From Minisyncoccota bacterium (GTDB taxonomy: Bacteria; Patescibacteriota; Minisyncoccia; Minisyncoccales; GWA2-38-27), in assembly GCA_028687715.1 (NCBI GenBank), contig JAQTZP010000001.1, positions 39,876 through 103,875 of the forward strand: 64,000 nt of DNA, read 5' to 3'. Shown piece after piece: positions 3,104 through 63,182 of the stretch. The position numbers and the translations under genes were made by a program. A model generated the notes under the pieces. The model was not told the DNA's origin. It saw only the letters and a program-made list of their open reading frames with translations, and made no database searches. The stretch's first letter is position 1. Every line of letters begins with the position of its first letter.

Positions 3104-3169
3104 ATCGTTGATTATACTATCTTACTTTTTATCATTTTTAAAGTCAAACAATGTGATATTATTAATAAT

Positions 3170-3799
3170 ATGAAGCATCCTAATTTTAATGAAGAAAAAA
3201 GATTAAAAAGGAAAGGCTATAAATTTATAATAGGATTAGATGAAGTTGGAAGAGGCTGTTTAGCCGGACCTGTTTTAGCGGCTGCAGTTTATATAACTAA
3301 TAATAAGTTTAAAGATAAAGGCATCAAAGACTCAAAAAAGCTGTCTTTTAGAAAAAGAGAACAAATCTATAATGATTTAATGGCTCGTTCTGATGTCAAA
3401 TGGGGGATAGGCAGAGTTTCAGAGAAGATAATAGATAAGATAAATATCTTTGAAGCTGCAAAGCTGGCTATGAAAAAGGCTGTTTTAGATTTAGAGAGAA
3501 AGATGAATATAAAGTCTGATTTCTTGATTTTAGACGGAAACTTCAAGATAGGTATAGATACTTTGCAGAAATCAATTATCAAAGCTGATGAGAAGGTTTT
3601 ATCCTGCGCTCTTGCTTCTATTATTGCCAAGGTCAAAAGGGATAGAATTATGTCAAATTATCACAACAGATATCCAGATTATCTTTTTAATAGGAATAAA
3701 GGGTATGGGACAAAGGTTCATATCAAGCAAATTAAAAATAACGGACCCTGTTTTATCCACAGGAAAACTTTTTTTCCTGTGAAAGAAATGATAGAATAA
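3170..3799 (+). CDS. rnhB: Ribonuclease HII
   Basis: IIGLDEVGRGCLAGPVLAAAV motif. The internal ATG at 3170 is preferred, because the 3071 start would overlap the dnaE start. Confidence 0.85.
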   Translation: MKHPNFNEEKRLKRKGYKFIIGLDEVGRGCLAGPVLAAAVYITNNKFKDKGIKDSKKLSFRKREQIYNDLMARSDVKWGIGRVSEKIIDKINIFEAAKLAMKKAVLDLERKMNIKSDFLILDGNFKIGIDTLQKSIIKADEKVLSCALASIIAKVKRDRIMSNYHNRYPDYLFNRNKGYGTKVHIKQIKNNGPCFIHRKTFFPVKEMIE

Positions 3800-3827
3800 C
3801 AGAATAATACAATAAACAACTTTTTCT

Positions 3828-6584
3828 ATGAAAAAAGAAACATTATATCTATTCTTGACTATTTCAATAATAGTTGCTTTTTTTATTCCTTTTGATTCTT
3901 ATGCTCTTTTAACTCCTCAAGTTTATTTAACTGAAATTCAATTGAATAAAGATACTTTTGAACCTAATCAGGAAATAACTGGAACTGTTAATTTGTGGAA
4001 TTATGAGAATTATGTGGTAAGCGACTTGTATTTTAATTTCCAGCTTATGGGAGAAGATGTTGATAATGTCCCTACTATGGCTATTGATGAGAAAACTGGT
4101 AATGAACAATTTACTCTACTGGCAGGGGAGAAAAAACACAAAAATTTTTCATATAGATTACCTAATAATTTACCGAACGGAAAACTTAAATTAAAGGTTC
4201 AGATTATTAACAGCAGGGGAGAGGGGATAAACTGGATATATAAAGAAATTATTATTGTAGGGGGAGGAAGATTTTTAAGTATAGGCAATTGTTGGTTTTT
4301 AAAAGAAGATTTAAAGTTTCCAACTGGAACAGGAGTTTACTACGAACCAAATGCAGTTCCGGAAGTGATTTTCGATATTATTAATTACTCTTCTTCTTCA
4401 ATCTCTGCTTACCCGAAGATAATAACCTATCGAAGAAACTCTATTGAAGCTGTAAGTGAAGATAAGGGCGGAATTGTAACTTTTAACCCTGATGATAAAA
4501 AAACACAAAGGCTTTTTCTTCCAAAACTTGAAAGGCCAGAATCATATTTAACAGCAATACGTTTCTACGATAGCGAAAGCAACGAACCAATTTCTAATAT
4601 CTCTTATTTCAGATGGATAATTTCAGGAGAAGATGACGCTCAAATTTTATTTGTCAGTTCGGATAAGAATTCTTATGAAGCAGATGAAATCGCAAAAATT
4701 AAAGTGCAGATTACTGGTCCGGCAGACCCAAGAGTTTCAGTAAATAGTTCAGATACAGAGATTAAAATACTTGACCAGAATGGCAAAGTTGTTGGAGAAA
4801 TTAAAAAAGAGACAAGATTTGGAGAGCTAGAGATTGATGTGCCGATTAAATCAAAGGTAGAAAATCCTAAAATTGAAGTAAAAATCACAAGCAATGGAAA
4901 GATTTTAGATGAGTATAATTTTATTGTTAATTCAGAGCAAAAAACAACTGAGCAAATACCTTTTTGGCAGAAAGATGGTTTTTTGACTAAATTTATTTTA
5001 TTTACAATATTATTTATAGCAGTTATGATAGGATTTATTTATTATTTTAGAAATAAAAAGAATAAATTTTTATTTATTTTATTGGCTATATTCTTAGGAA
5101 GTTTAGTTTTTATTTCTAATACGAGTGTAGTTTTTTCATTAGTGGAAGTTACAGAAGGCTGTCAAGATCCACATCATGGTGGCATGATTTCCGAAATTAG
5201 CATAAGTAGTCCTATTCCAAATTTAGTAATTAATCCTGGTGGTTCAATTCCGATAAATGGTCAAGTTTCAGTGGCAGATTGCGGCAACGGCTTATTTTTT
5301 AATAAGGTAACTTTTTACATAAAACAAGATGATAATGAACTAGAACATATGATAGATTGTTGCCAAAGAACTATAGAAAATTGTTCATTAGAGGGATGGT
5401 ATGGATGTGGCTGTTCTGTTGGTTGTGATAATTGTTATGGTGCTACCAGCCTTCATTACAAAGCATGTTATCCTTATACGGCGGTGCCTACTACAGGAGG
5501 ATGGAAGATTATAAAGGATGAAAACGCTGTTTTTTGTGATCAAGTAAAAGTATTAAAAACAGAGGGCAGTAACTTTATAAAATTGGGAGAATGTTATCCA
5601 AGAGATGTTCTAGAACATGGGCCTGGTACTTATATAGAATATAATCAAACCCCAAGTGTACCGTCTAATTTGGGATTTTATGGCAAAGCTCGTTTATATA
5701 TTCAGTTTTCTGGACTCCATGCAAGTAGCACTGGTTTAAGTGAATTTATGGCTGGTTGGTCTCCTCAATATGCAATAAAGATGGGTTGGGGAATCTGGAA
5801 GTGGGGTATTGTCTATCAAGATATATATATAAATAAACCTCCTTATACCAGTTCTTTGTCTGCTGACTCTAAGTATTGTGTTTCAGAGGGTATAGGAAGA
5901 GTTGATTTTAAATGGATATATAATGATGAAGATGTTATTGATGGAAATCTTGATAATCAGACCCAATATAATATTCAAATATCCGAAGATCAAAATTTTT
6001 ATAATCCGATAGTAGATAAATACATAAATCAGAATGTTCCTCCTTATAATCAAGGAACCTCTTCTGTTGTAGTCGTTCAAACACCTTCTTCCGGTCTTCA
6101 GATAGGATACAATAAGCATTATTATTGGAGAATAAGAGTTAAAGATAGTAATGAAGCTTGGTCCGGATGGTCGGGGGTAAATGATTTTTATACTCCTTCT
6201 CATCCTTACCCCTGGCCTAATTTTTCATCCGAACAGCTTCCCAATACTCAAAGAGTTAAATTTACAGATGAAACCAAGTTTTTTGATGGGAACTCAGGGC
6301 CGAGAACCTGGAGTTGGGATTTTGGAGACTCAACAGGTTCTTCTTTGCAAAATCCTGTTCATTTTTATTCACAAAGCGGGAGTTATCTAGTTAAATTACA
6401 TGTAGTTGATTCAGACGGTTACAGCTGTCCTCTTGAACCTAGGACTATTTCTGTTTCAAGCACGGATTTATTCAATATCCCAGGCTGGCGTGAAATTCCA
6501 CCCCCTATATTTAATCAAGGATTCTTAAACACTCTTTTTTCTCAAATCTTTGGCTTTATGCCCTGGAGCTTGCTAAATATTTGA
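3828..6584 (+). CDS. Large secreted/membrane protein with Cys-rich region, FN3-like and C-terminal PKD-like domain
   Basis: N-terminal signal-like segment and two mid-protein TM helices. WSWDFGDSTGSSLQNPVHFYSQSGSYLVKLHVVDSDG matches the PKD-domain pattern. Confidence 0.5.
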   Translation: MKKETLYLFLTISIIVAFFIPFDSYALLTPQVYLTEIQLNKDTFEPNQEITGTVNLWNYENYVVSDLYFNFQLMGEDVDNVPTMAIDEKTGNEQFTLLAGEKKHKNFSYRLPNNLPNGKLKLKVQIINSRGEGINWIYKEIIIVGGGRFLSIGNCWFLKEDLKFPTGTGVYYEPNAVPEVIFDIINYSSSSISAYPKIITYRRNSIEAVSEDKGGIVTFNPDDKKTQRLFLPKLERPESYLTAIRFYDSESNEPISNISYFRWIISGEDDAQILFVSSDKNSYEADEIAKIKVQITGPADPRVSVNSSDTEIKILDQNGKVVGEIKKETRFGELEIDVPIKSKVENPKIEVKITSNGKILDEYNFIVNSEQKTTEQIPFWQKDGFLTKFILFTILFIAVMIGFIYYFRNKKNKFLFILLAIFLGSLVFISNTSVVFSLVEVTEGCQDPHHGGMISEISISSPIPNLVINPGGSIPINGQVSVADCGNGLFFNKVTFYIKQDDNELEHMIDCCQRTIENCSLEGWYGCGCSVGCDNCYGATSLHYKACYPYTAVPTTGGWKIIKDENAVFCDQVKVLKTEGSNFIKLGECYPRDVLEHGPGTYIEYNQTPSVPSNLGFYGKARLYIQFSGLHASSTGLSEFMAGWSPQYAIKMGWGIWKWGIVYQDIYINKPPYTSSLSADSKYCVSEGIGRVDFKWIYNDEDVIDGNLDNQTQYNIQISEDQNFYNPIVDKYINQNVPPYNQGTSSVVVVQTPSSGLQIGYNKHYYWRIRVKDSNEAWSGWSGVNDFYTPSHPYPWPNFSSEQLPNTQRVKFTDETKFFDGNSGPRTWSWDFGDSTGSSLQNPVHFYSQSGSYLVKLHVVDSDGYSCPLEPRTISVSSTDLFNIPGWREIPPPIFNQGFLNTLFSQIFGFMPWSLLNI

Positions 6585-19147: not shown

Positions 19148-19154
19148 CTAAAAT

Positions 19155-19270
19155 ATAATAAAATAGCCAAAGACAATGGGTTTGCGCATCGCTTTAAATC
19201 CCATCGAGGCAGTTTATTCCCTTTTTATTTTAAAGGGAGATAGAGCTGTCTCGGACAGCTTTTTAAATTT
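19155..19270 (+). promoter_or_regulatory. Structured rplJ leader with terminator-like hairpin (L10-leader-like autoregulatory element)
   Basis: Hairpins ATGGGTTT...AAATCCCAT and TCCCTTT...AAAGGGA, then GAGCTGTC-TCG-GACAGCTTTTT immediately before the rplJ ATG. Confidence 0.45.
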
Positions 19271-19801
19271 ATGGCTTTAAAAAAAGAGCAAAAACAAAAA
19301 ATAATAGAGAAGATAAAGAATGTTTTAGAAAAACAGAAAATAGCAGTTTTTGTAAGCATAGCTGGACTAAAAACAAAAGATGTCTCTGATTTGAGAAAGA
19401 AGCTGAAAGAGAAGAACTGCGTTTTTGGCGTTGTTAAGAAAACCCTTCTAAATATCGCTTTTGATAAGAATTTTGAAGCAGATATCAAGAATTTAAAGGG
19501 GGAGATTGCCCTAATTTCAGGAATAGATGATGAGATTTCAGCGCCAAAGATTGCTAATAAATTCTCTCTTAATAATAAAAACTTAGAGATTTTAGGAGGC
19601 GTTTTCAATAACGAGTTTATAGGAAGAGAAAAGGTAATAATTCTGGCAAATATCCCTTCAAAACAAGAACTTCTGGCTCAGCTTGTTGGAACCATCAAGG
19701 CGCCGATATCCAATTTTACCAATGTTGTTTTTTCAAATATTAAAGGTCTTGTTTATACATTAAATTCCATTAAAAATAATAAAGAGGCGGTAAATCAATA
19801 A
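19271..19801 (+). CDS. rplJ: Ribosomal protein L10
   Basis: Position directly upstream of L7/L12; KIAVFVSIAGLKTKDVSDLRKKL pattern. Confidence 0.85.
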   Translation: MALKKEQKQKIIEKIKNVLEKQKIAVFVSIAGLKTKDVSDLRKKLKEKNCVFGVVKKTLLNIAFDKNFEADIKNLKGEIALISGIDDEISAPKIANKFSLNNKNLEILGGVFNNEFIGREKVIILANIPSKQELLAQLVGTIKAPISNFTNVVFSNIKGLVYTLNSIKNNKEAVNQ

Positions 19802-22434: not shown

Positions 22435-24846
22435 TTGAGAAAATATATGAAATTTATAAGAGATAAATTTCAGAAAACCAAAAAGGCAGTTAAGAAAAAA
22501 ACAATAAGGCATGACGAAGAAATAATCAAGAATCTATTTTTGGGAATTGCTTCGTTTGTTTTTCTTGCGGTTATTGTTTTTCTATTCCAAGAAGAATCAA
22601 GATTTAGGCATAATTTTTTGGCATCTGTAAGTTTGACTTTGCAGAAATCTGCTCCAAGCCCCAATGTTTTCTTTGCTTCGGCTCCTGATATTTCTCAAGG
22701 ATTGCCTTCTAATAAAGTCTATCCTCAAGGCAAGATATTTCCGTTTTCAGGCATCGGCGGAAATGCAAGCATTGATAAGGCAAATATGTTTACCATGGCA
22801 GGACCCTATTATGCCCAAGATCAATCATATTATTTAGAGAGAGCTAAAGAGGCGGGGTTAAAATACATTTTTTCCGTAGGGTATAATATAAGGATGAATA
22901 TCGATAATTACGATATGCCTCCATTTAATTTGTCAGAAGAGCAGGTTGTTGAAGAAATTCGCAGCCAAATATCTCCCTATTTGCTAGATGATGCCATTTC
23001 CTGGTGGTATTTATTGCCTGAAGAATCAAGGTGGTGGCGCTCTAAAGAAATTGAATATATTAGAATTGCCTCTAATGCGATTCATAGTATCGATCCGAAG
23101 AAAAGGCCTGTTTGGATGTATGAGCCCTGCCATCGTTCTTCAGACAATCTTTCTAAAATGATTCCTTATTTAGATATTGAAGGAAAGGGAATGTATACAA
23201 ATCATGTTGATATGAAAGAATCCAGGATTTTTTGCACTTGGACTATAGAACAGGAAAAAGAAGCTATAAATATTGCCAATCGAAATGCTGTCCCGATTGC
23301 CGTTCCTGAGTTATTTGGAAATATAGTTGGAGCGGATGAATACAATCTTATTCCGAATTGGGTGCGCCACGATGTTTATTCCGCTTTGATAGCGGGAGCA
23401 AAAGGAATTGTCATTTACAAAACATATAATTCAAACACTTCTTATTACAGAGAATACTACGATGCTTATGCAAAAATAGCTAATGAATTAAACGGTAGCC
23501 TTAATTTGGGCCAGGTATTTTTATTTGGACAAAAGCGCAATGATTTAGAAGTTACAGTAATTCAGGGACCCAATACAGTTAATTTTCTCTTTCCTGCCGG
23601 TGATGTTGAATCTCCAATAATTTATCCTTCTGTTAATTTTCTTGATATAGCTTACGGAAATAATCGTTATCTTTTTTTAGTGAATTCTGCCAACGAGCCT
23701 GTTCAGACAGCAGTTCGCGGATTTCCCTTATCGCAAACTATAATTAGAGATATTTTTAACAAAAATAGCATTGTAAATAGTTCTAACGGAAGCTTTAATC
23801 TTAATCTTGCTTCGTTTGAAGTAAAAGCTTTTAAATTTGAGAAGTCTGAACCAGAAGAGCCTGAACCAGAAATTCCAGATTGTCCTTCAGATGATAATAT
23901 CTGTACAACAGAGACATATTCTAATGGAAGATGCATTTCATATTATAACACCAGCACTTGCGATGACAACAATCCCTGCACTGAAAATGACAAATGTCAA
24001 AATGGGATATGTTTTGGAACAGCGATTGACTGCAATGATAATAACTCCTGTACGGTTGACAGCTGTGTAAACGGAGCCTGCCAGCATATCTTTGACAGCA
24101 GCTTCTTCGGCTGTCAATGCATTTTAAATTCAGATTGCAATGATAATAACATTTGCACCAGCGAAGTCTGTATTAATGGAAGTTGCGTCTTTTTAAACAA
24201 TAATAATTCCTGCGATGACAACAATCCCTGCACTGAAAATGACAAATGTCAAAATGGGATATGTTTTGGAGATTTAAAAGACTGCAATGATAACATCAGC
24301 TGTACAGAGGATTTCTGTTCTGGAGGAGTATGCATTCATTCAAGCGAAAAGTGCGGCTGTTTGAGCGATAGCGAGTGCAACAGCAATAATACCTGCGTAA
24401 ATGACTTTTGCAATCCAACAACGATGAAATGCGATAAGACATTTAACACTAATTTATGCAATGATAATAATCCGTTTACTATAAATGACAGGTGCCATGA
24501 AGGCTTTTGTTTTGGCGAATTGATATGCAATTTTAACTCCAGATGCGATGCCGAAAAAGGAGAAAGCTGTCTTAATTGTTCCTTTGACTGCGGTTTCTGT
24601 ACGGTCTATGAATCTTCGGCAGATAATAAAAATATTACTAAAACTGCTGCTAAAAGAACAATAAGCGAAGAAGATAAATCTCTTTTTTCCGAAGGCATTA
24701 AAAGAGAAAAGTCAGCGCCTTTTTCTTCTTTAAAAGCGCTCAAAGATTTAGTTATAGAATTCTTTAAAAGCTTGGAAGGAAAAATAATTCTATTCAGCTC
24801 AATAGCAATTTTTATAATTATACAAATCATCCTTATGGTATTATAA
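22435..24846 (+). CDS. Large surface protein with tandem Cys-rich CxDxNxCTxDxCxxGxC repeats and C-terminal TM anchor
   Basis: N-terminal TM/signal segment. At least 7 Cys-rich repeat units between aa ~490 and 700. C-terminal helix ILFSSIAIFIIIQIILMVL. Confidence 0.5.
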   Translation: MRKYMKFIRDKFQKTKKAVKKKTIRHDEEIIKNLFLGIASFVFLAVIVFLFQEESRFRHNFLASVSLTLQKSAPSPNVFFASAPDISQGLPSNKVYPQGKIFPFSGIGGNASIDKANMFTMAGPYYAQDQSYYLERAKEAGLKYIFSVGYNIRMNIDNYDMPPFNLSEEQVVEEIRSQISPYLLDDAISWWYLLPEESRWWRSKEIEYIRIASNAIHSIDPKKRPVWMYEPCHRSSDNLSKMIPYLDIEGKGMYTNHVDMKESRIFCTWTIEQEKEAINIANRNAVPIAVPELFGNIVGADEYNLIPNWVRHDVYSALIAGAKGIVIYKTYNSNTSYYREYYDAYAKIANELNGSLNLGQVFLFGQKRNDLEVTVIQGPNTVNFLFPAGDVESPIIYPSVNFLDIAYGNNRYLFLVNSANEPVQTAVRGFPLSQTIIRDIFNKNSIVNSSNGSFNLNLASFEVKAFKFEKSEPEEPEPEIPDCPSDDNICTTETYSNGRCISYYNTSTCDDNNPCTENDKCQNGICFGTAIDCNDNNSCTVDSCVNGACQHIFDSSFFGCQCILNSDCNDNNICTSEVCINGSCVFLNNNNSCDDNNPCTENDKCQNGICFGDLKDCNDNISCTEDFCSGGVCIHSSEKCGCLSDSECNSNNTCVNDFCNPTTMKCDKTFNTNLCNDNNPFTINDRCHEGFCFGELICNFNSRCDAEKGESCLNCSFDCGFCTVYESSADNKNITKTAAKRTISEEDKSLFSEGIKREKSAPFSSLKALKDLVIEFFKSLEGKIILFSSIAIFIIIQIILMVL

Positions 24847-24931: not shown

Positions 24932-25068
24932 AGACCAGATTCCTCGGCACCAAAATTGTTTTATTTTTGGATTTTCTGGTATAATAAAGTAAAAGTCGGA
25001 GAAATAAAAATAACTAACCCACAAAATCGGGTATCGCATCTACCAGATTTGTGGCATAATGAAAACAT

Positions 25069-26984: not shown

Positions 26985-27060
26985 GGGCGGGAGGCAGCGG
27001 CTTTTTCCTAAAGTCGAGAATTTCTGATAAAATAAGTTCGAGCGGAGTCATATAGATACA
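26985..27060 (+). repeat. Degenerate fourth copy (D) of the junction element: half hairpin plus promoter-like TGATAAAAT plus AGTTCGAGC
   Basis: gggcgggaggcagcggctttttcc...gaatttctgataaaataagttcgagcggagtcatata aligns with copies B and C (58360-58420; 61665-61735). Confidence 0.5.
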
Positions 27061-27135
27061 TATTAATAATTTTGACAAATTATAAGCGGGTAGTATTATT
27101 AATCAATACAGCTCTTTTTTTCAAAGGAGAATCAG

Positions 27136-55504: not shown

Positions 55505-55578
55505 GCGAGGTTAGTATACTGGCATTATGCAACCTTCCCAAGGTTGAGAAGCGGGTTCGATTCCCGTACCTCGCTCCA
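55505..55578 (+). tRNA. tRNA-Gly (anticodon CCC), CCA encoded
   Basis: Acceptor GCGAGGT/ACCTCGC; anticodon stem CAACC/GGTTG with loop TTCCCAA; T arm GCGGGTTCGATTCCCGT. Confidence 0.8.
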
Positions 55579-55692
55579 CAATCAAACTTTTTTCGCTTTT
55601 CTTGAAATTTTTCGTGGCGGCGCTTTGCGCCGCCCGCGAAAATTTGGGAAAATTTCCAGAAAGTCAGATTATTGTGCGTTTATACAACCTCA

Positions 55693-55868
55693 CTCGAACT
55701 CATTTTATCAAAAATTCTTGAGAAAAACAATTGTCCCGCCCCGCTTGTGCGGGGCGGGACAGAAAACCCAAAAGTCGCTCGGGCGGGGCGGGAAGAAAAA
55801 GGGGTGTGGGGAAAATGAATTCCCGCCCCCGCCCTCGCTTTCTATGCGGGAAAAATTTATTTTTTAAA
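55693..55868 (-). repeat. Junction element copy A (two GC-rich hairpins, T-tract, promoter-like box); perfect inverted copy of 58231..58406
   Basis: Base-by-base comparison with the reverse complement of 58231-58406: 176/176 identical. Hairpin 1 is GTCCCGCCCCGC-TTGT-GCGGGGCGGGAC. Hairpin 2 is GGGCGGGGCGGGAA...TTCCCGCCCCCGCCC. Confidence 0.9.
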
Positions 55869-56318
55869 AATCATTTTAATCCTCGGCTCACCGTCTCCAA
55901 AATAATTTTCCTTTGGTTTTCCGACTTGTTTAAATCCAAAAAATTTATATATATGCATCGCTGCTGCATTGTCTGGATGTGTAAGCAGTTCAACTATTTT
56001 TACTTCTTTCAAATCTTCGAGTAAAATTTTTATGGCTTCTTTTCCAATTCCTTGGCCCTTATATTTTGAATTAACACAGAGCCCACTAATATATGCTGTA
56101 TTTTTATTTTTCATCTCATATGAAATATCACCCACGATTTCACCGTCCATAATAATGGCATAAACCATTGCATTTCCTTTTGCCAGCTCATCCAGCCATT
56201 CTTTTTCAGTCAGCATTGCTGAATATGTTTTTGAAGACGCAGTTTTTTCAATTTCAATCAATGTTGGAATGTCTTCCTCCTCAATTTTTCGTAAACTGAT
56301 TTTTAATTTATTTTTCAT
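55857..56318 (-). CDS. GNAT family N-acetyltransferase
   Basis: CVNSKYKGQGIGKEAIKILLE (acetyl-CoA loop Q/RxxGxG/A). The last 4 codons lie inside repeat A. Confidence 0.8.
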   Translation of the reverse strand: MKNKLKISLRKIEEEDIPTLIEIEKTASSKTYSAMLTEKEWLDELAKGNAMVYAIIMDGEIVGDISYEMKNKNTAYISGLCVNSKYKGQGIGKEAIKILLEDLKEVKIVELLTHPDNAAAMHIYKFFGFKQVGKPKENYFGDGEPRIKMIFKK

Positions 56319-56322
56319 AGGA

Positions 56323-56715
56323 TTACCTATTCAGTAAGAAATTTTTAATCTCTGGAGATATGTCTTGAATTTTCTGGTATTTAATTATTAAGTCGGCAAT
56401 CCCCCTTGTTGTGTCCTTAATTTGTGTTTCGTGTTTCATAATAACAATAACTTTTTTACCAAAAGCGTAAGCAATCCCGGCCTCATATGCCCTACCAGTC
56501 GGCTTGTCTGTCATATCGATCAAAAGAGCATCAGATTTTTTAATTTCGTCTTTTGTTTTTTGCATTAAATCTTTTGGATTATCAAAAACTTTTTGATAAT
56601 TTTCTACATCTCGTATAAAACAAAAGTCTTCAAAACCTGCGGTTTTTACTAAAGAACAAAGACTCTCTATATTTTGTTTGCTATCACCAAAAGATGCGGT
56701 AATAAAAATTCTCAT
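56323..56715 (-). CDS. Nucleoside 2-deoxyribosyltransferase-like small Rossmannoid protein
   Basis: MRIFITASF...ALLIDMTDKPTGRAYEAGIAYAFGKKVIVIMKH. Confidence 0.5.
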   Translation of the reverse strand: MRIFITASFGDSKQNIESLCSLVKTAGFEDFCFIRDVENYQKVFDNPKDLMQKTKDEIKKSDALLIDMTDKPTGRAYEAGIAYAFGKKVIVIMKHETQIKDTTRGIADLIIKYQKIQDISPEIKNFLLNR

Positions 56716-56716
56716 T

Positions 56717-57265
56717 TTATTTTTTTGAAATTAAACTCAAAAGTAAGGGAAACTTTTTGTATGGCTGATTAAACATATTAGAACCCATATGGCCTTCGTG
56801 TTTTATAATTTGCGTGCCACCAAGATTGTCAAAAAATAACCTACCTTGTTTATCGTTGTATTGCCATGGGTCATCATCTGAATTTATGTAATAGAATTCT
56901 TCTGCTTTGTCTTTTATTTTTGCCCAATCAAAATCATCAACGCTGTTTTCACTGTCTGCATTTTTCCGTAATGCTTTAGCATAACCAGATACCAAAATCG
57001 CCTGTTTGATTTTTACATCCAGTTTTTCTAAAACACTTGGAATTATTTGAGCGCCGGCCGAATGCCCAATAATAACTGTTTCAGAAGTAAACTCCCAATT
57101 TTCCAAAATAAAAGGCAACCAATCTTTGCGATTTGGTTTGTCGCTTGCAGGAAGTTGCGGAAGCCAGACTTTATATCCTATTTTTTCTAATTCCTCTTTA
57201 AGCCAAGGAAACCAAAAATCGGTTGGTTTGTCTTTTGTTCCGTGTAATATAATTGCGTTTTTCAT
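56717..57265 (-). CDS. Alpha/beta serine hydrolase (YdeN/RBBP9-like)
   Basis: AIILHGT..., nucleophile elbow IIGHSAGA, C-terminal HEGHMG. Confidence 0.65.
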   Translation of the reverse strand: MKNAIILHGTKDKPTDFWFPWLKEELEKIGYKVWLPQLPASDKPNRKDWLPFILENWEFTSETVIIGHSAGAQIIPSVLEKLDVKIKQAILVSGYAKALRKNADSENSVDDFDWAKIKDKAEEFYYINSDDDPWQYNDKQGRLFFDNLGGTQIIKHEGHMGSNMFNQPYKKFPLLLSLISKK

Positions 57266-57344
57266 AATTATTTTATCCTACCAAAAAATTGTGCTAATTA
57301 AAAGTTAAAGCCCCGTCGATTGCTCGTACGGGGCTCTTGCGATG

Positions 57345-57995
57345 TCAGCTGCAGCGCAGGCACTTCTTGCGATTGTGCCGGGACAGAATCCTTACCGTAC
57401 TAGACGGAGTTGGAATCTGCGATTCGATTTCGTAGACACAATTGAAGACGATGCCACAGCTTTTGCACTTTCCGACTTGCTCACTACTATCAGGTACAGG
57501 ACCCTGAACAGACTTGTTCCACCCTGGAGCGTGGGTTTCGCAAAGTCCGCCACCGGGCGTGGGTGTGTCGCAGAGTGCACACGTGCACTGGCAACTCTCC
57601 AAGTGTTCGTAACAGACGTAACAAATACACTTGCAGAAAGCAGTATCACGGTTGCACTTGTAGCACCAGGCAGGATCGTCGTAATCGTCATCATCATAGC
57701 CGTCGTCCGGCTCGATGATAGAACGGTTTTCTTCGATTGCCCGGAATTCCTCCTGCATCCACTTCCACTCTTGGTCGGTGATTTGGCCAGAGATCAGGTG
57801 AGCTGAGTTAAAGTCACCTGCCTCGGGACAATTACCACCAGTCACCTTTTTCAAGGCGCAGTCGTAGCACAACGGCTCGTCCTGCTTACGCCCAAGAGCG
57901 TACCCCCAATATGTGATTTCGTCGGAATCATTCCTCTCAAAGAACTTGTTGCAAATTTTACACTTCTGGCTTGAAACTTTCTTCTGCTTCGACAT
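57345..57995 (-). CDS. G+C-rich Cys-rich protein (216 aa) with several CxxC pairs and an acidic DDGYDDDDYDD patch
   Basis: KCKICNKFF...CYDC, WCYKCNRDTAFCKCICYVCYEHLESCQCTCALCD, KCKSCG, KKCLRCS. Own promoter (TTGACA-17-TAATAT at 58178-58150, minus strand). Terminator AGCCCCGT...ACGGGGCT (57310-57336). Confidence 0.6.
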   Translation of the reverse strand: MSKQKKVSSQKCKICNKFFERNDSDEITYWGYALGRKQDEPLCYDCALKKVTGGNCPEAGDFNSAHLISGQITDQEWKWMQEEFRAIEENRSIIEPDDGYDDDDYDDPAWCYKCNRDTAFCKCICYVCYEHLESCQCTCALCDTPTPGGGLCETHAPGWNKSVQGPVPDSSEQVGKCKSCGIVFNCVYEIESQIPTPSSTVRILSRHNRKKCLRCS

Positions 57996-58230
57996 TTCTC
58001 AATCTCCTTTTACCGGGTTTGTAAACAAACTGACGATAATTGGAGATATACCCGCTTGCTCCTTTCGGAGGGGTGAAGGGCTGAACCAATCTCTCTTGAT
58101 CCTGATTCCCAACAGACCAAGAGAATATATCTAAATTTGCTCCGTAATTATATTATCATATTATTAAATATATGTCAATAGTGTGTGGTCTAAACAGTGT
58201 GGGTGGCCACAACAACACAATAAAAAAATA

Positions 58231-58406
58231 TTTAAAAAATAAATTTTTCCCGCATAGAAAGCGAGGGCGGGGGCGGGAATTCATTTTCCCCACACCCCTT
58301 TTTCTTCCCGCCCCGCCCGAGCGACTTTTGGGTTTTCTGTCCCGCCCCGCACAAGCGGGGCGGGACAATTGTTTTTCTCAAGAATTTTTGATAAAATGAG
58401 TTCGAG
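58231..58406 (+). repeat. Junction element copy B (archetype orientation: hairpin 2, hairpin 1 plus T-tract, TTGTTT-17-TAAAAT, ATGAGTTCGAG)
   Basis: Identical to the reverse complement of 55693-55868. Lies in the divergent region between the Cys-rich gene and the kinase-like gene. Confidence 0.9.
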
Positions 58407-58514
58407 CAGAATTGTATATATGCTCCAGTATATTTACAACCACGCTTTAAATAAGACGTTGTTGTCTTATTTAAAGATCGTTCTTTCACAACAAAAATAA
58501 GGAGGACTCTGAAA

Positions 58515-59144
58515 ATGATCGTGCAAAAGTCTCTGTTCGTTACTTTTGAGGGCCCCAACGGCATCGGGAAGACTACCGTTATCAAAGATGTCGCGCAAAA
58601 ACTGAGCGTTTTGGGATGCAGTCTTCTGTGTACTAAAGAACCCACCGGTTCGTCGCTTGGTGACTTCTTGAGAAAAGCAGAGGAGTTATACGGGAGAGAA
58701 GTTCTCGCCTGTATTGCGGCGGCGGATCGATATTTTCACATAGAAAAAGAAATCGCACCAGCGTTAGCGACAGGTAGAATCGTTCTTTCCGACCGATACG
58801 TCGAATCGTCACTGGTACTTCAACGTCTTGACGGGTGTTCGCTCGAATTTATCTGGAGCATTAACTCGCAAATTCTTGTTCCTGATTTAAGCATCATTTT
58901 CTTCGCTGATCCTGTGATCATCGGACAACGACTCGTAACTAAGAGAACAAAGTTGAGTCGTTTTGAGCGCGATGAAACGAGAAAGCAAGAAATGTTCTTC
59001 TACCACGAAGCGGCAGAGTTCATCGCTCAAAAAGGATTTCATGTCCTTTTGTTGGAGAACGAAAAACAATCAGTGGGTGATACTTCTGAATACATTGTGG
59101 TTGAAGTCCAAAGGCTACTCAAAAAAAAGGAGGAAGCATCATGA
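58515..59144 (+). CDS. Thymidylate-kinase-family P-loop protein (dTMP-kinase-like)
   Basis: LFVTFEGPNGIGKTT (P-loop), TKEPTGSSLG, SDRYVESSLVLQ (DRY/DRH-like). AAGGAGG RBS. Confidence 0.65.
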   Translation: MIVQKSLFVTFEGPNGIGKTTVIKDVAQKLSVLGCSLLCTKEPTGSSLGDFLRKAEELYGREVLACIAAADRYFHIEKEIAPALATGRIVLSDRYVESSLVLQRLDGCSLEFIWSINSQILVPDLSIIFFADPVIIGQRLVTKRTKLSRFERDETRKQEMFFYHEAAEFIAQKGFHVLLLENEKQSVGDTSEYIVVEVQRLLKKKEEAS

Positions 59145-60211
59145 AAAAACCGATCATTTCCGTTAACCAAATGATGTCCTGTTATTTCCGTACTTCAGTT
59201 CAATCACCTTACCGGAAAGCGCTCGTGCAGATTACCGAATGGTGCAATCTGCATTGTTCGCATTGCTTTGTCTCGGCCGGACAATACGGTGACACCATGT
59301 CGCTGGAAAGTGTCCGTGATATTCTTGTGCCTCGTCTCAAAGAATGTCGCGTGCTGAACGTAACGCTTACTGGCGGCGAGCCATTCGCGCACCCTAACGT
59401 CATCGAGATTGTATCGCTTTGCAAAGATGCTGGCATGAAAGTTGGCATCTGTACGAACGCAACTTGCATTAGCGAAGATCAGATGAAAGCGCTCGCAGCG
59501 TTGGGAGCACATTGCAACGTCAGTTTGGACGGTTTCTCTCCGGAGAGTCATGGCAGGTTTCGCGGCGATAAAGCGTCGTTTGCAACCACCATTTCAACCA
59601 TTGAGATGGTGGCCAGATACGGTTTGTTGCAAGGGTTTTTGGTGACTCCTAACAATCTCGCCGAGGTCGAGGAGTATGCAAAGATTTGCGAGTTCGCTAC
59701 GGTAAACGGTGCAACGTATGTGTTGATGAATCCGCTTTCGTCCATGGGAAGAGGCGTAAAGACGGCGGGAAAGCTCGGAGTTTCCAACGAGGTAATGCGT
59801 CAGATTGCCAACGTAACTTCACAGTTCGCGGACAAAGTCGAGATAGTACCTATCCGATTTCCGAACGAAAAGAAGTTGCCGCTTACGGGATGCGAAGCGG
59901 GCAATATTATCTACGTTTTTACCCTCGGCGAACTCACGGTATGTCCCTATCTAGTGTTTTCAGCACGGACGCCGCAGAGTCAACACAAGGCAGAAGAATT
60001 TATCGTTGGCAATATCTTTCGCGATGCCAATATTGCCGTTCGCCTTGATGAATACAAACTCCTTGAGCGGTATCGTCTCGGTGGTAATCCGACATGCGGA
60101 GGATGTCGTCTTAACGCCGAGTGCGGCAAAGGATGTCCCGCAGCGATCATTTCCTCTGGCAAGCGAATAGAGGAAATGGACGCAGAGGTGTGTCCGGTCT
60201 TCATTCGGTAA
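59141..60211 (+). CDS. Radical SAM enzyme with C-terminal SPASM/twitch-type auxiliary-cluster domain
   Basis: CNLHCSHCF (CxxxCxxC), LTGGEPFAHP. C-terminal GCEAG...CPY...CGGCRLNAECGKGCPA...C. ATGA overlap with the kinase-like gene. Confidence 0.8.
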   Translation: MKKPIISVNQMMSCYFRTSVQSPYRKALVQITEWCNLHCSHCFVSAGQYGDTMSLESVRDILVPRLKECRVLNVTLTGGEPFAHPNVIEIVSLCKDAGMKVGICTNATCISEDQMKALAALGAHCNVSLDGFSPESHGRFRGDKASFATTISTIEMVARYGLLQGFLVTPNNLAEVEEYAKICEFATVNGATYVLMNPLSSMGRGVKTAGKLGVSNEVMRQIANVTSQFADKVEIVPIRFPNEKKLPLTGCEAGNIIYVFTLGELTVCPYLVFSARTPQSQHKAEEFIVGNIFRDANIAVRLDEYKLLERYRLGGNPTCGGCRLNAECGKGCPAAIISSGKRIEEMDAEVCPVFIR

Positions 60212-60217
60212 ACATAA

Positions 60218-60256
60218 CCCGCAGTGGAATTTTAACATTCTACTGCGGGATTTTTT
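60218..60256 (+). terminator. Intrinsic terminator after the radical SAM gene
   Basis: CCCGCAGT-loop-ACTGCGGG followed by ATTTTTT. Confidence 0.75.
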
Positions 60257-60277
60257 ATGGTAAAATAAAAAAATAAT

Positions 60278-61021
60278 ATGAATAATCTATCAATTTTTAT
60301 CTGGAATATAGCAAATCCGTCGTTTGAGCGTGCCGTTAAACAGGCAGAATGGATTCGCAGGAGAAAAGAAGACATTTTTGTCTTAACCGAGATAAAAGTA
60401 AGTAGCGGATGTTTGTTTCTTAAAAAATATTTCCAAGCATATGGGTATTACGTACTCTTCCCCGATATTGAAGATAGGGAATACGGAGTAATGATTTTGA
60501 GTAAGATTCCCCTGTCAGGGGGGACTCTTCAATATATGGATTTTATCCCATCGCGAGCTATGTATGGGAAGTTTTCATTTTTTGATAAAGATATAGAGAT
60601 TGGAGGTATTTATGTTCCTTCCCGCGATGCAAGCGAGAAGAAAATCAAAAAGAAGAAACTTTTTCTACAAACTCTTTTAGATGCTCTCCAAAAATCGAAC
60701 TTAGACAATCCGCGTATCGTTTGCGGAGATTTTAATATACTTGAACCTAATCATAATCCGCATTATCCTTTCTTCAAAGATTGGGAATATGATTTTTACA
60801 GTCAATTATCGAAACATCAATTAAGTGACGCGTGGCGTTTTTTGTATCCATCCAAACAAGAATATAGTTGGATTGGAAAAACGGGTGATGGATATCGATA
60901 TGATTATTGTTTTGTTTCAAATGTTTTATTGCCGTCGATAAAAAATTCGTTTTACCTCCATGAGCCAAGACTTCAAAAATTAAGCGACCATTCCGCGCTT
61001 ATTACTGAATTACATTTATGA
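60278..61021 (+). CDS. Endonuclease/exonuclease/phosphatase (EEP, ExoIII-like) family protein
   Basis: IFIWNIAN...DIFVLTEIK...CGDFNI...SDHSALITEL. Confidence 0.7.
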   Translation: MNNLSIFIWNIANPSFERAVKQAEWIRRRKEDIFVLTEIKVSSGCLFLKKYFQAYGYYVLFPDIEDREYGVMILSKIPLSGGTLQYMDFIPSRAMYGKFSFFDKDIEIGGIYVPSRDASEKKIKKKKLFLQTLLDALQKSNLDNPRIVCGDFNILEPNHNPHYPFFKDWEYDFYSQLSKHQLSDAWRFLYPSKQEYSWIGKTGDGYRYDYCFVSNVLLPSIKNSFYLHEPRLQKLSDHSALITELHL

Positions 61022-61617
61022 TTGAAGTAGAAAAAAAGTTTATATTGAACGAGCAAGATAAAAAGCGATTAACAAAGAACGCTCAATTTCTCAATGAGCG
61101 CATTTTTACTGATATTTATTACGATACAGAAATTTTTTCTCTAACATCAAAAGATAAATGGTTTCGTTCTCGTGAGGGCAGATTTGAGCTGAAACTCCCT
61201 CTACACGACGGAGTCGACAGATTAGCTGACCAATACGATGAGTTAGAAGATGAGCAGAAAATAAGAGAAGCTCTAAATCTGCCCTCTAACGGAAATCTTG
61301 CTGATGATTTGATAAAAGCCGGATATTCACCATTTTGCACTTGTAAAACTAATCGAAGAAAGTATAAGAAAGAGCCATTTATTATTAACCTTGATATTAT
61401 TGATTTTCAAGATTTTACCTACAACATCGGAGAAATTGAGTTGATGATTAGCAATAAATCTGAAATTGAAGATGCGAGTAAAAAGATAATGTATTTTGCA
61501 AAGACACAGAATCTTGTAGTCACACCAGTGCGGGGGAAAATTATTGAATATTTAAAACGTGCAAAACCAAATCACTATCAGACTCTTGTGAAGAGAGGGG
61601 TTGTTGAGGATTTTTAA
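61018..61617 (+). CDS. CYTH-domain (triphosphate tunnel metalloenzyme) protein
   Basis: MIEVEKKFIL (ExExK signature) and later RFELKLP, IGEIELM beta-strand acidic/basic pattern. ATGA overlap with the EEP gene. Confidence 0.7.
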   Translation: MIEVEKKFILNEQDKKRLTKNAQFLNERIFTDIYYDTEIFSLTSKDKWFRSREGRFELKLPLHDGVDRLADQYDELEDEQKIREALNLPSNGNLADDLIKAGYSPFCTCKTNRRKYKKEPFIINLDIIDFQDFTYNIGEIELMISNKSEIEDASKKIMYFAKTQNLVVTPVRGKIIEYLKRAKPNHYQTLVKRGVVEDF

Positions 61618-61620
61618 CCC

Positions 61621-61740
61621 TCTTTTTGCCCGCGAACCGACAGGTTTTCCTGCCCGCCCCCGCCGTTCGGCGGGACGGGACGTTGTTTTTTATAGGAATT
61701 CTTAATAAAATGAGTTCGAGCGTAGTTGTGAATATACTCC
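61621..61740 (+). repeat. Junction element copy C (diverged: single imperfect GC hairpin plus T-tract, TTGTTT-17-TAAAAT, ATGAGTTCGAGC)
   Basis: GCCCGCCCCCGCC-GTTC-GGCGGGACGGGAC followed by GTTGTTTTTT, then cttaataaaatgagttcgagcgtagttgtgaatatactcc. Aligns with copy B. Confidence 0.7.
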
Positions 61741-61824
61741 ATAATCAAACTTAACTCTTTTTCAGATACTTTTTGATGGACTTCCATTTTTAAACCCATA
61801 TTTTATTATTAAATAAAAATAATA

Positions 61825-63034: not shown

Positions 63035-63106
63035 GCCAACGTAGCTCAGCGGCAGAGCAGGGCTTTCGTAAAGCTCAGGTCGTCGGTTCAAGTCCGACCG
63101 TTGGCT
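63035..63106 (+). tRNA. tRNA-Thr (anticodon CGT)
   Basis: Acceptor GCCAACG/CGTTGGC; anticodon stem GGGCT/AGCTC with loop TTCGTAA; T arm GTCGGTTCAAGTCCGAC. Confidence 0.85.
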
Positions 63107-63182
63107 CTTTTTGACTAATTAATCTATCCGTGTTAATTTAAATTCAGTTCCTTTTAGGTTTCTCTTCTTGGAGGGCTGTTAA

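Follow-up and report, generated by a model that had tools for sequence, protein, structure and literature searches.

The DNA stretch analysed here, hereafter called the window, comprises 64,000 nucleotides of the Minisyncoccota bacterium assembly GCA_028687715.1 (contig JAQTZP010000001.1, positions 39,876 to 103,875 of the forward strand). It contains a 7.4-kb variable island between the genes for tRNA-Gly(ccc) and tRNA-Thr(cgt), in which a group of genes including a GNAT acetyltransferase, a second group including a kinase-like and a radical SAM protein, and nagZ are set apart by copies of a junction element. The element consists of one or two GC-rich hairpins, a T-tract, promoter-like hexamers and a conserved string, and this anatomy, proposed in a preliminary description of the sequence, was recovered in the sequence, in its folding and in the positions of the hexamers. 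The map of open reading frames (ORFs) and Pfam domains of the window also bore out that the copies lie at cassette boundaries. The junction element is probably the conserved terminal module of cargo-carrying integrative elements of Patescibacteria that occur together with a large serine recombinase (LSR) and have the 3' (CCA) ends of tRNA genes as their insertion sites. The family appears not to have been described previously. The earlier idea of a cassette junction or recombination site is supported by the comparative data on the LSR and on the tRNA junctions, to which are now added the mutual inversion of two of the copies (A and B), the presence of tRNA-Gly beside copy A and the extension of the module to a C.CCA end.

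A 26-nt core pattern, GAATTNTTGATAAAATGAGTTCGAGC, was scanned with up to 3 mismatches over the window and over 100 dinucleotide-preserving shuffles of it. The core was present at exactly four sites, at 55717 on the minus strand (copy A) and at 58382 (copy B), 61696 (copy C) and 27018 (copy D) on the plus strand, and the shuffled windows contained 0 matches, so that the chance expectation is 0. An nhmmer profile of the core found the same four copies and no further ones. Copies A (55676-55878, minus strand) and B (58221-58423) form a 203-nt inverted repeat with 95 % complementarity; they are near-identical, but not perfect as first claimed. The string ATGAGTTCGAGC is exact in B and C, has T as its last base in A and reads ATAAGTTCGAGC in D. 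Beyond this string the conserved module runs 20 nt further, up to the C.CCA end. In both B and C the two hexamers are separated by 17 nt and TG lies two bases 5' of the -10 hexamer (Table 1). Hairpin 2 of copy B had a folding energy of -31.2 kcal/mol (z = -8.2), hairpin 1 of B -28.4 kcal/mol (z = -2.4) and the hairpin of copy C -24.2 kcal/mol (z = -3.2), and copy D had no significant hairpin on folding (z = +0.5). The sequence of copy C was identical in two Logan assemblies.

Table 1 Features of the variable island and copy D in the window; E1 and E2 are the two putative elements discussed in the text
Feature	Position	Strand	Evidence and remarks
tRNA-Gly(ccc)	55505..55578	+	ARAGORN, Rfam; 3' end CGCTCCA
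Imperfect palindrome between tRNA-Gly and copy A, centred on hairpin GGCGGCGC-TTTG-CGCCGCC	55579..55671	.	Folding -36.4 kcal/mol, z = -4.8
Copy A, putative tRNA-proximal terminal repeat of E2	55672..55878	-	Inverted-repeat, core-pattern, profile and terminator scans
Copy A, conserved right half	55672-55699	-	Ends CACAA
Copy A, -10	55702-55707	-	
Copy A, -35	55725-55730	-	
Copy A, hairpin 2	55732-55761	-	
Copy A, hairpin 1	~55783-55837	-	
Cargo of E2: GNAT acetyltransferase, nucleoside 2-deoxyribosyltransferase-like protein, serine hydrolase, 216-aa protein of unknown function	55857..57995	-	ORFs, Pfam
Copy B, putative distal terminal repeat of E2	58221..58427	+	
Copy B, hairpin 1	58262-58322	+	
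Copy B, hairpin 2	58338-58367	+	
Copy B, -35 TTGTTT	58369-58374	+	
Copy B, TG-extended -10 TGATAAAAT	58389-58397	+	TAAAAT at 58392-58397
Copy B, GTTCGAG	58400-58406	+	
Copy B, TTGTATA	58412-58418	+	
Copy B, end GCTCCA	58422-58427	+	
GTATATTTACAA, inverted copy of TTGTAAATATAC block	58428..58439	-	Read from sequence; hexamers on reverse strand listed
Cargo of E1: thymidylate-kinase-like, radical SAM, endonuclease/exonuclease/phosphatase (EEP) family and CYTH proteins	58515..61617	+	ORFs, Pfam
Copy C, putative distal terminal repeat of E1	61621..61741	+	Pattern scan, profile, folding
Copy C, single hairpin	61653-61679	+	
Copy C, -35 TTGTTT	61683-61688	+	
Copy C, -10 TAAAAT	61706-61711	+	
Copy C, GTTCGAG	61714-61720	+	
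Copy C, end ACTCCA	61736-61741	+	
tRNA-Thr(cgt)	63035..63107	+	Far edge of the 7.4-kb variable island
Copy D, decayed	26985..27063	+	Core with 2 mismatches in 26, no hairpin, end decayed to CATAT

The degenerate 22-mer TTYYTRATAAAATRAGTTCGAG was scanned over a genome-contig collection of 596 Gb, in which about 1 chance match was expected. It matched at least 117 stretches from other genomes, nearly all of them Patescibacteria of many classes, and the element is thus not confined to the island from which it was first described. Among the matches listed were many Parcubacteria candidate phyla, Microgenomates (Roizman-, Shapiro-, Ames- and Gottesmanbacteria) and Berkelbacteria, and many of these matches were situated 10-350 nt from a contig end, a clustering which is the signature of an assembly-breaking repeat. 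The 22-mer had no match in the viral contigs of IMG/VR, and a phage origin was rejected on this ground. No Rfam match at the gathering thresholds was obtained for the window and 16 loci, only chance-level matches at E <= 1. A literature search on the core sequence, on promoters or repeats of the candidate phyla radiation (CPR) and on serine recombinases in Patescibacteria or Parcubacteria found nothing relevant.

Conservation was assessed from 110 non-redundant copies of other genomes, with module coordinates counted from the first T of the 22-mer. The conserved module covers about 58 nt (about -16 to +42) with the consensus T(G/T)G ... TCAgGAA TTTTTGATAAAATrAGTTCGAG C.... T(T/C)(G/A)TA(A/T)A ... 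C.C(C)A, and with its lineage-specific hairpins the whole terminal module is about 120-200 nt long. Outside the search pattern T-7, A-5, A-1, C22, T27, A31, C38 and C40 are conserved, as are T30 (106/110) and A33 (110/110). The upstream hairpins vary in sequence among lineages and keep their pairing. No base-pair covariation was found within the conserved core, which argues that its primary sequence is conserved and not an RNA structure. Copies from one and the same genome show no differences between about -160 and +38 to +41, where the identity ends sharply, and subfamilies of the element are common to different genomes. The core was present in only one (L128; loci from other genomes are designated by L and a number) of the 17 LepA neighbourhoods closest to the window, which have LepA identities of 54-67 %. 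A universal CPR promoter was ruled out by this patchy distribution. Approximately 27 % of the cores lie no more than 300 nt from a tRNA gene, in several arrangements, compared with about 3 % estimated for a random intergenic position.

The hairpins and the conserved ATG of the string also allow the element to be read as a structured non-coding RNA gene or, as the preliminary description had considered, a leader-peptide gene, but either is very improbable. The pairing maintained in hairpins that differ among lineages, the better folding of the upstream hairpin region on the plus strand and the short ORFs which begin at the conserved ATG in A, B and C would agree with such a gene. The only overlapping Rfam match, however, was a chance-level one to Pxr (26 bits against a threshold of 80 bits), the core lacks covariation, and the proposed start is ATA instead of ATG in 63 of the 110 copies, the short ORFs differing in length and sequence and their peptides not being conserved. 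Two related candidates were also rejected: a C-terminal peptide on the minus strand (..ARTHFIKNS*), whose frame is a by-product of the DNA conservation and which in D would lie in a divergent intergenic region, and a tRNA remnant or 3' domain like that of transfer-messenger RNA, for which there is no T-stem complement, a negative ARAGORN result at that place and a spacing 4 nt too long.

The numerous and assembly-breaking copies, their presence in all four types of intergenic context, the occurrence of solo copies of approximately 125 nt and the sharing of subfamilies between genomes could also be attributed to a small non-autonomous repeat, spreading by itself in intergenic regions and terminators and unrelated to the LSR, as do repetitive extragenic palindromic (REP) sequences, bacterial interspersed mosaic elements (BIMEs) or miniature inverted-repeat transposable elements (MITEs). 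We regard this as improbable. A resemblance to MITEs had been noted earlier, but the two ends of a single copy are unrelated (A/T-rich sequence and hairpin 1 at one end, TTGTAwA...CCA at the other) and form no terminal inverted repeats, no target-site duplication was found at A, B or C, and no transposase is associated with the copies. Such a repeat would also not account for the strict adjacency of the element to the LSR wherever the LSR is present, nor for the proportion of copies near tRNA genes.

In some of the loci about 350 nt of conserved non-coding DNA separate the core from a downstream ORF, which begins with MQKFFLYARKSTD and codes for an LSR with Resolvase, Recombinase and Zn_ribbon_recom domains. 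The C-terminal part of the protein matched the A118 integrase structure 4KIS (E = 2.4e-12). In tblastn searches homologues of the LSR were found only in loci which also hold the core, that is in all 19 loci with an LSR match, those with truncated LSRs included, and no LSR was found in the window or in 80 LepA loci (L120-L199). Each full-length LSR is preceded, at a distance of 300-450 nt, by a core of the same orientation, which is degenerate in L095. To remove the ascertainment bias of loci chosen by their core, an LSR protein search was used, in which 8000 candidates were scored and 7999 passed E <= 1e-30; the best 120 matches had at least 74 % identity, came from several candidate phyla and were often on contigs of 1.8-2.0 kb. 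The loci L200, L201, L203 and L204, whose LSRs were picked independently of the core, showed the same order of core, an inverted-repeat arm of 135-137 nt, LSR, second arm and a tRNA gene on the opposite strand. Across the loci the inverted repeats flanking the LSR were 70-147 nt long, and the orientation of the LSR relative to the proximal core was identical in all of the approximately 16 assembled loci.

In L077, where the repeats lie at 4447-4583 and 6138-6274, and also in L023, L041, L020, L200, L201 and L203, the LSR ORFs run through the right repeat into the tRNA gene. The annotated LSR proteins range from 437 to 604 aa, and the homology among them ends near residue 462, precisely at the beginning of the repeat. 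The annotated C-termini may therefore differ from the true one, and the reverse complement of the 3' end of the gene is contained in the left repeat.

The cargo is itself bracketed by inverted terminal repeats with outward-facing cores. These repeats are 197 nt long in L201 and 119 nt in L200, in both cases 100 % complementary, and about 180 nt in L077; L074 and L204 also have such repeats. Along the strand of the tRNA the layout is tRNA-CC, trailer, LSR (reverse), trailer', CC-core (reverse), hairpins, cargo, hairpins, core-CC and host DNA. In L201 and L204 the recombinase element is present at the chromosomal site of the window, directly after DivIC and tRNA-Gly(ccc), with the distal core 11 nt upstream of tRNA-Thr(cgt) in L201 and facing coaD-prfA-ftsE in L204. 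In L121, L126 and L130 the order is MurJ-LepA-DivIC-tRNA-Gly-tRNA-Thr followed by a gene of the apurinic/apyrimidinic endonuclease family, and the two tRNA genes are 3-7 nt apart. As they are adjacent in these relatives and separated by 7.4 kb in the window, the window region is an insertion. The same spot is a variable hotspot in relatives without the core element as well: L125 has a protein containing bPH_2 and Schlafen/AlbA_2 domains there (3750-4733), and L129 an exonuclease of the RNase_T family along with a small protein whose match to DUF2116 was below the threshold (2681-4058).

Between L201 and L204 the LSRs are 71 % identical, the DivIC proteins 33 % and the RF-1 proteins 66 %. Between the window and L201, the non-coding terminal repeats are nearly the same as far as hairpin 1, hairpin 2 shows compensatory changes, and the DivIC proteins are 36 % identical. 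The greater similarity of the LSR and of the terminal repeats than of DivIC argues for horizontal spread.

The perfect inverted repeats around both the cargo and the LSR gene would also suit a DNA invertase which flips the cargo or its own gene, forming a phase-variation switch beside tRNA genes with the core as inversion site. The direction of the cargo genes does differ, being towards the proximal copy in E2 of the window, L201 and L204 and away from it in L077 and L200, and some sources label the proteins as DNA invertase Pin-like. This explanation nevertheless seems unlikely, since the domain architecture of the LSR and its match to A118 are those of integrases and transposases and not of the small Hin/Gin invertases, the LSR has one orientation in the approximately 16 loci, and comparison with related genomes shows the whole unit to be inserted. 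The partial tRNA copies at the junctions also speak against it, as do the outward promoters, which flipping would not switch.

The junctions with the tRNA genes were compared in 12 LSR loci. Module positions +36 to +38 mark the start of the left inverted repeat, and in most of the loci the right one ends 3-5 nt inside the 3' end of a tRNA gene (Gly, Lys, Tyr, Arg or Ala). In L062, L200 and apparently L065 the right repeat abuts what looks like a 3' fragment of a tRNA gene, the nearest intact gene being 56-180 nt beyond. The last 4-7 nt of the core are the same as the last 4-7 nt of the adjacent tRNA in 12 of 12 loci; the core ends with CTCCA where the discriminator base is U and with CACCA where it is A, which explains the A/T polymorphism at module position 39. 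All six tRNA genes located no more than 300 nt upstream of a core are on the strand of that core (6/6). The most invariant block of the core, GTTCGA, is the sequence of the tRNA T-loop, and is 28 nt from the CCA end in the core compared with 24 nt in tRNAs.

The zinc-ribbon domain of the A118/LI integrase recognizes a motif that occupies positions 16-24 of the half-site in attP and is shifted 5 bp towards the centre in attB, and the inner approximately 12 bp are recognized by the recombinase domain (PMC3783163). The layout of the core, with GTTCGAG(C), 4-5 variable positions and TTGTAwA...C.C up to the junction, is compatible with an element-side half-site. We infer that the right half of the core would be the element-side arm of the attachment site of the LSR, with the tRNA end as the host-side half-site. 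In copy B the end of the core together with the adjoining 12 nt gives the pseudo-palindrome TTGTATATATGC-TCCA-GTATATTTACAA (58411-58439).

At one junction, in L044 (approximately 542-620), the core is truncated at module position +35/+36 and fused head-to-head with the 3' end of a tRNA-Thr gene (...CGTAAATA|TGGAGCC...) with no spacer; this junction may be unoccupied or rearranged.

The left half of the core has the features of an outward-facing promoter, and would be predicted to act as one. TTGTTT, 17 nt and TAAAAT after TGa correspond to hexamers of the sigma-70 type under a rule that asks for a spacing of 16-18 bp and, in the -10, for A at the second and T at the sixth position, and T-16, G-14 and the hexamer spacing are conserved in the 110 copies. 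A promoter scan with a rule of 9/12 consensus positions does not list the hexamers of the module, which have 8/12. The extended -10 consensus is weakly enriched in the window, with 5 matches compared with 2 expected. A second promoter whose -10 would be TAwAnA (+30 to +35) was not adopted, since the last position of this hexamer is A in 77 of the 110 copies and there is no -35. A tRNA gene on the same strand starts 0-14 nt past the module end in 8 loci, and the host genes or tRNAs cut off from their upstream promoter by the insertion lie directly 3' of the distal cores. The promoter region of the LSR itself has the same GAATTTTTGnTAtAATG form.

Copies A and B were listed as terminator-like by the terminator scan, although with 5 nt between the stem and the T-run B and C depart from the classical terminator structure. 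In 66 loci the upstream hairpin region had its better fold on the plus strand and in 22 on the minus strand (p = 2e-8), and the plus strand has more G-U pairs. Such strand-asymmetric folding favours a role at the RNA level and would fit the termination of cargo transcripts. From their position on the cargo side of each terminal repeat the hairpins would be expected to terminate transcription of the cargo. The element had been called a portable terminator-promoter insulator: its inner hairpins and outward promoter have the architecture of one, and function as such can be suggested from the sequence.

These features could be all there is to the element, that is a purely regulatory cassette of a terminator and a strong promoter for tRNA and other genes, spread by ordinary recombination, of which the LSR merely uses the promoter. 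A near-consensus extended -10 promoter (TTG, 17 nt, TGATAAAAT), an upstream hairpin and T-run listed as terminator-like, tRNA genes or start codons 0-30 nt past the module end in many loci, and a conserved module of approximately the size of an RNA polymerase footprint are what such a cassette would have. Of the 108 cores with a gene or tRNA no more than 700 nt downstream, however, 67 face a co-directional feature and 41 the 3' end of a convergent one, and nine cores lie antisense between two co-directional genes. The patchy distribution (1/17 of the closest LepA loci), the conservation of the spacer and of 20 nt 3' of the -10 without base-pair covariation, and the identity of copies within a genome up to a sharp end are also difficult to reconcile with it, as is the end of the core, which tracks the tRNA discriminator in 12/12 loci and at which exactly the repeat boundaries lie. 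On balance a purely regulatory cassette appears unlikely, if somewhat less so than the other alternatives.

The terminal module of an LSR-driven integrative element, which remains our preferred explanation, would function as follows. On its inner side, one or two GC-rich hairpins and a T-run would stop the transcription leaving the cargo, and the outward sigma-70-type promoter (TTG, 17 nt, TGaTAAAAT) would read out of the element. The promoter of the distal copy would drive the host genes that have been cut off, namely tRNA-Thr or coaD-prfA-ftsEX in the relatives and nagZ with tRNA-Thr in the window, and that of the proximal copy would read towards the recombinase gene. The last approximately 27 nt (GTTCGAG, 5-6 variable nt, TTGTAwA...C.CCA) would be the P arm of the LSR attachment site, mimicking a tRNA 3' end with the T-loop GTTCGA followed by the discriminator base and CCA, and strand exchange would take place within the shared C(T/A)CC. 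A full element would consist of a recombinase and a cargo segment separated by two inverted copies of hairpins-core-CCA-trailer, and in its circular form would integrate through the CC of one of the two copies, splitting that copy. Integration of this kind would explain why perfect inverted repeats occur in pairs and why the repeats break off sharply at CCA, as well as the intact second copy, the outward cores and the 6/6 same-strand tRNAs. Both elements of the window would have lost their recombinase.

Several observations weigh against this explanation. In the window, which has no recombinase, the link with the LSR is through repeat homology only. With a conservation about equal to that of RF-1, the LSR could also be a constrained gene of ancient vertical descent; an identical LSR protein, P0101, is present on 22 contigs, and all 10 of the places examined are one chromosomal site, so that it offers no direct evidence of recent movement. 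The uniform orientation of the LSR likewise is not direct evidence of either inversion or a circular form. The invariance of the 22-mer is partly by construction, as it was the search pattern, which does not apply to the conservation of the flanks. An LSR attachment site measures 40-50 bp and has pseudo-symmetric half-sites on either side of a central dinucleotide; the dyad symmetry of the proposed site is weak over all copies, with its best centre in the promoter spacer and not at CCA. The shift of GTTCGA is 4 bp and not 5 bp as for A118/LI, and GTTCGA as the bound motif is an assumption. The architecture of the repeats, their distribution, their association with the LSR and with tRNAs, the identities at the junctions and the presence of an insertion are direct observations, whereas the action of the LSR on core sequences and the activity of promoter and terminator are deduced from the sequence, and the crossover position from the repeat boundaries. 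The promoters of the 41 cores which face a convergent gene cannot serve that gene, the strand asymmetry of the hairpins could partly reflect a G+T-rich composition, and the model does not account for the solo copies, e.g. that between tRNA-Ile and tRNA-Val in L111.

In our reading the window contains two tandem LSR-less elements between tRNA-Gly(ccc) and tRNA-Thr(cgt). The first, E2, would comprise copy A, the GNAT cargo and copy B, and the second, E1, a 12-nt remnant, the kinase/radical-SAM cargo and copy C; copy D would be an older, decayed copy. On the sequence, integration presumably took place at tRNA-Gly(ccc), whose 3' end would form the host-side junction arm, and tRNA-Thr(cgt) would have been its direct neighbour before the insertion. 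Both arms of the palindrome between this tRNA gene and copy A resemble the first approximately 45 nt of the inverted-repeat arms in L201, L077 and L023 (CAATCAAAC/GTAATAAAAC ... CGTGGCGGCGC), and we read it as the probable scar of two LSR-flanking inverted repeats, from which the recombinase was deleted through the repeat hairpins; no recombinase was found by tblastn anywhere in the window. The 12-nt GTATATTTACAA next to copy B we take to be what remains of the proximal repeat of E1, the older of the two elements. Directly 3' of copy C there is a tRNA-trailer-like sequence, TAATCAAACTT, and nagZ lies between this copy and tRNA-Thr(cgt).

The cargo of E1 has a GC content of 43-48 %, compared with about 35 % for the window. 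Its radical SAM protein matched the PADLOC models for pVip (prokaryotic viperin), the match being confined to the radical-SAM core, and its kinase had a weak match to VakA and PDC-M51B. The operon may be a viperin-like defence cassette or a nucleotide-modifying one, with unusual partners.

The closest known kind of system is the integrative element driven by a large serine integrase (A118/LI, phiC31 and Bxb1 with attP x attB; TnpX of Tn4451; CcrAB of SCCmec). The resemblance includes the protein with Resolvase, Recombinase and Zn-ribbon domains and its 4KIS match, an insertion bounded by a short sequence common to the target, and conserved blocks at motif-compatible distances, further out on the element side than on the host side. 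In contrast to those systems, the target here appears to be the generic 3' end of several tRNAs (T-loop plus CCA) and not one gene, a second intact element-side site is present in inverted orientation with long perfect repeats around LSR and cargo, the site forms one unit with a putative outward promoter and terminator hairpin, and there are no phage genes and no identified recombination directionality factor.

The layout of the tRNA island recalls the tycheposons of Prochlorococcus and other genomic-island elements that target tRNA genes, which insert at tRNA 3' ends and form variable islands of tandem cargo arrays with attachment-site remnants or partial tRNAs and with accessory or defence-like cargo. 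Insertion at tRNA 3' ends, tandem cargo cassettes with such remnants between them, accessory or defence-like cargo and variable islands are common to both, whereas the repeats described here are an approximately 58-nt module mimicking a T-loop and CCA rather than partial tRNAs, and the inverted-repeat architecture and the host group, Patescibacteria, are different.

Structured imperfect palindromes at cassette boundaries, external promoters and stems which vary and remain paired are also known from the attC sites and cassettes of integrons, to which the element had been likened in the preliminary description. This likeness does not extend to the R'' and R' boxes (RYYYAAC ... GTTRRRY) with their GTTRRRY core, since GTTCGAG has a pyrimidine where R is needed, nor to IntI, any other tyrosine integrase or attI, which are absent; the copies occur in both orientations instead of a co-oriented array, and the primary sequence is conserved outside the hairpins. 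Insertion sequences and Correia-type repeats share with the element a complete outward promoter in terminal repeats that could drive host genes nearby, the occurrence in several copies and the breaking of assemblies, but here there is no DDE or HUH transposase and no target-site duplication, and the ends are tied to the LSR and to tRNA 3' ends. The inferred circle, with two unique segments and two long inverted repeats each holding a recombinase target, resembles the 2-micron plasmid of yeast (FLP/FRT), from which it differs in having a serine and not a tyrosine recombinase and in being found integrated in a bacterial chromosome, its circular form and flipping being deduced here.

The genomes of CPR bacteria (Patescibacteria) are tiny, and the routes by which they gain and lose genes are little known. 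If the proposed explanation is correct, one motif of approximately 58 nt could flag the borders of mobile cargo, defence genes included, across Patescibacteria and would explain many contig breaks. It would also point to a very large recombinase family, with at least 8000 protein clusters, whose members come with predicted natural sites resembling tRNA ends; this would be relevant to the recognition of attachment sites and would supply integrases whose sites are defined. Through its own outward promoter, the element would also illustrate how a tRNA operon can receive an insertion without silencing of the genes downstream. A broader reading is possible, though we put it forward only tentatively: a family of serine-recombinase elements, not described so far, common to the whole superphylum, with a site mimicking the universal T-loop and CCA so that almost any tRNA gene could be a landing site, an inverted spare copy of that site, which would produce a double inverted-repeat layout as in the 2-micron plasmid, and cargo for defence and surface proteins in cassettes insulated by terminator and promoter. 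Were this true, Patescibacteria would have an equivalent of integrons and tycheposons that works with serine recombinases, and it would rank among the main routes by which genes enter and leave their reduced genomes.

Some additional features of the module and its surroundings were observed. In three genomes (L057, L060 and L072) the core is located just 3' of the RNase Y gene (rny), in convergent orientation, which constitutes a second recurrent site that is not a tRNA gene. The loop of hairpin 1 (58279-58303 in the window) is conserved across genomes as TTTTCCCCACACCCCTTTTT or its complement AAAGGGGTnnnGGGGAAAA, and is also found in L095, L040 and L017. Its orientation relative to the core varies, being C-rich in the window and L201 and G-rich in L074, L077, L200 and L204. 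The cause may be a flip-flop of the loop from one arm of the stem to the other, or the loop may be a small palindromic insert of its own. The promoter spacer contains a 14-bp palindrome, TCAnGAATTnnTGA (module -7..+6; 58378-58391 in the window), which could be an operator for some protein. A near-copy of it, TTTCAGGAATTTTT, is present in the trailer about 12-25 nt past the CCA end in L023, L077 and L204, and in L069 and L056 the trailer switches to the core at the shared palindrome stretch, as would fit deletion or duplication by recombination between the two.

Copy D is located in a divergent intergenic region, with a 74-aa ORF downstream of it and tRNA-Val(cac), encoded on the same strand as the copy, 2.1 kb upstream. 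About 20 nt past the CCA end of this tRNA gene there is a second GGCACCA followed by AAATTG... (24932-24975), which could be a duplicated junction of tRNA end and trailer and so a possible old attachment-site scar paired with copy D. Elsewhere in the window, an ORF of 803 aa (22435-24846) codes for what is probably a secreted or surface protein, with a Cys-rich C-terminal region of tandem CNDNN..C.. repeats (DNA repeats at 23890-24318), and a ribosomal protein L10 leader was identified with Rfam at 19149-19274 (46.5 bits, gathering score 44).

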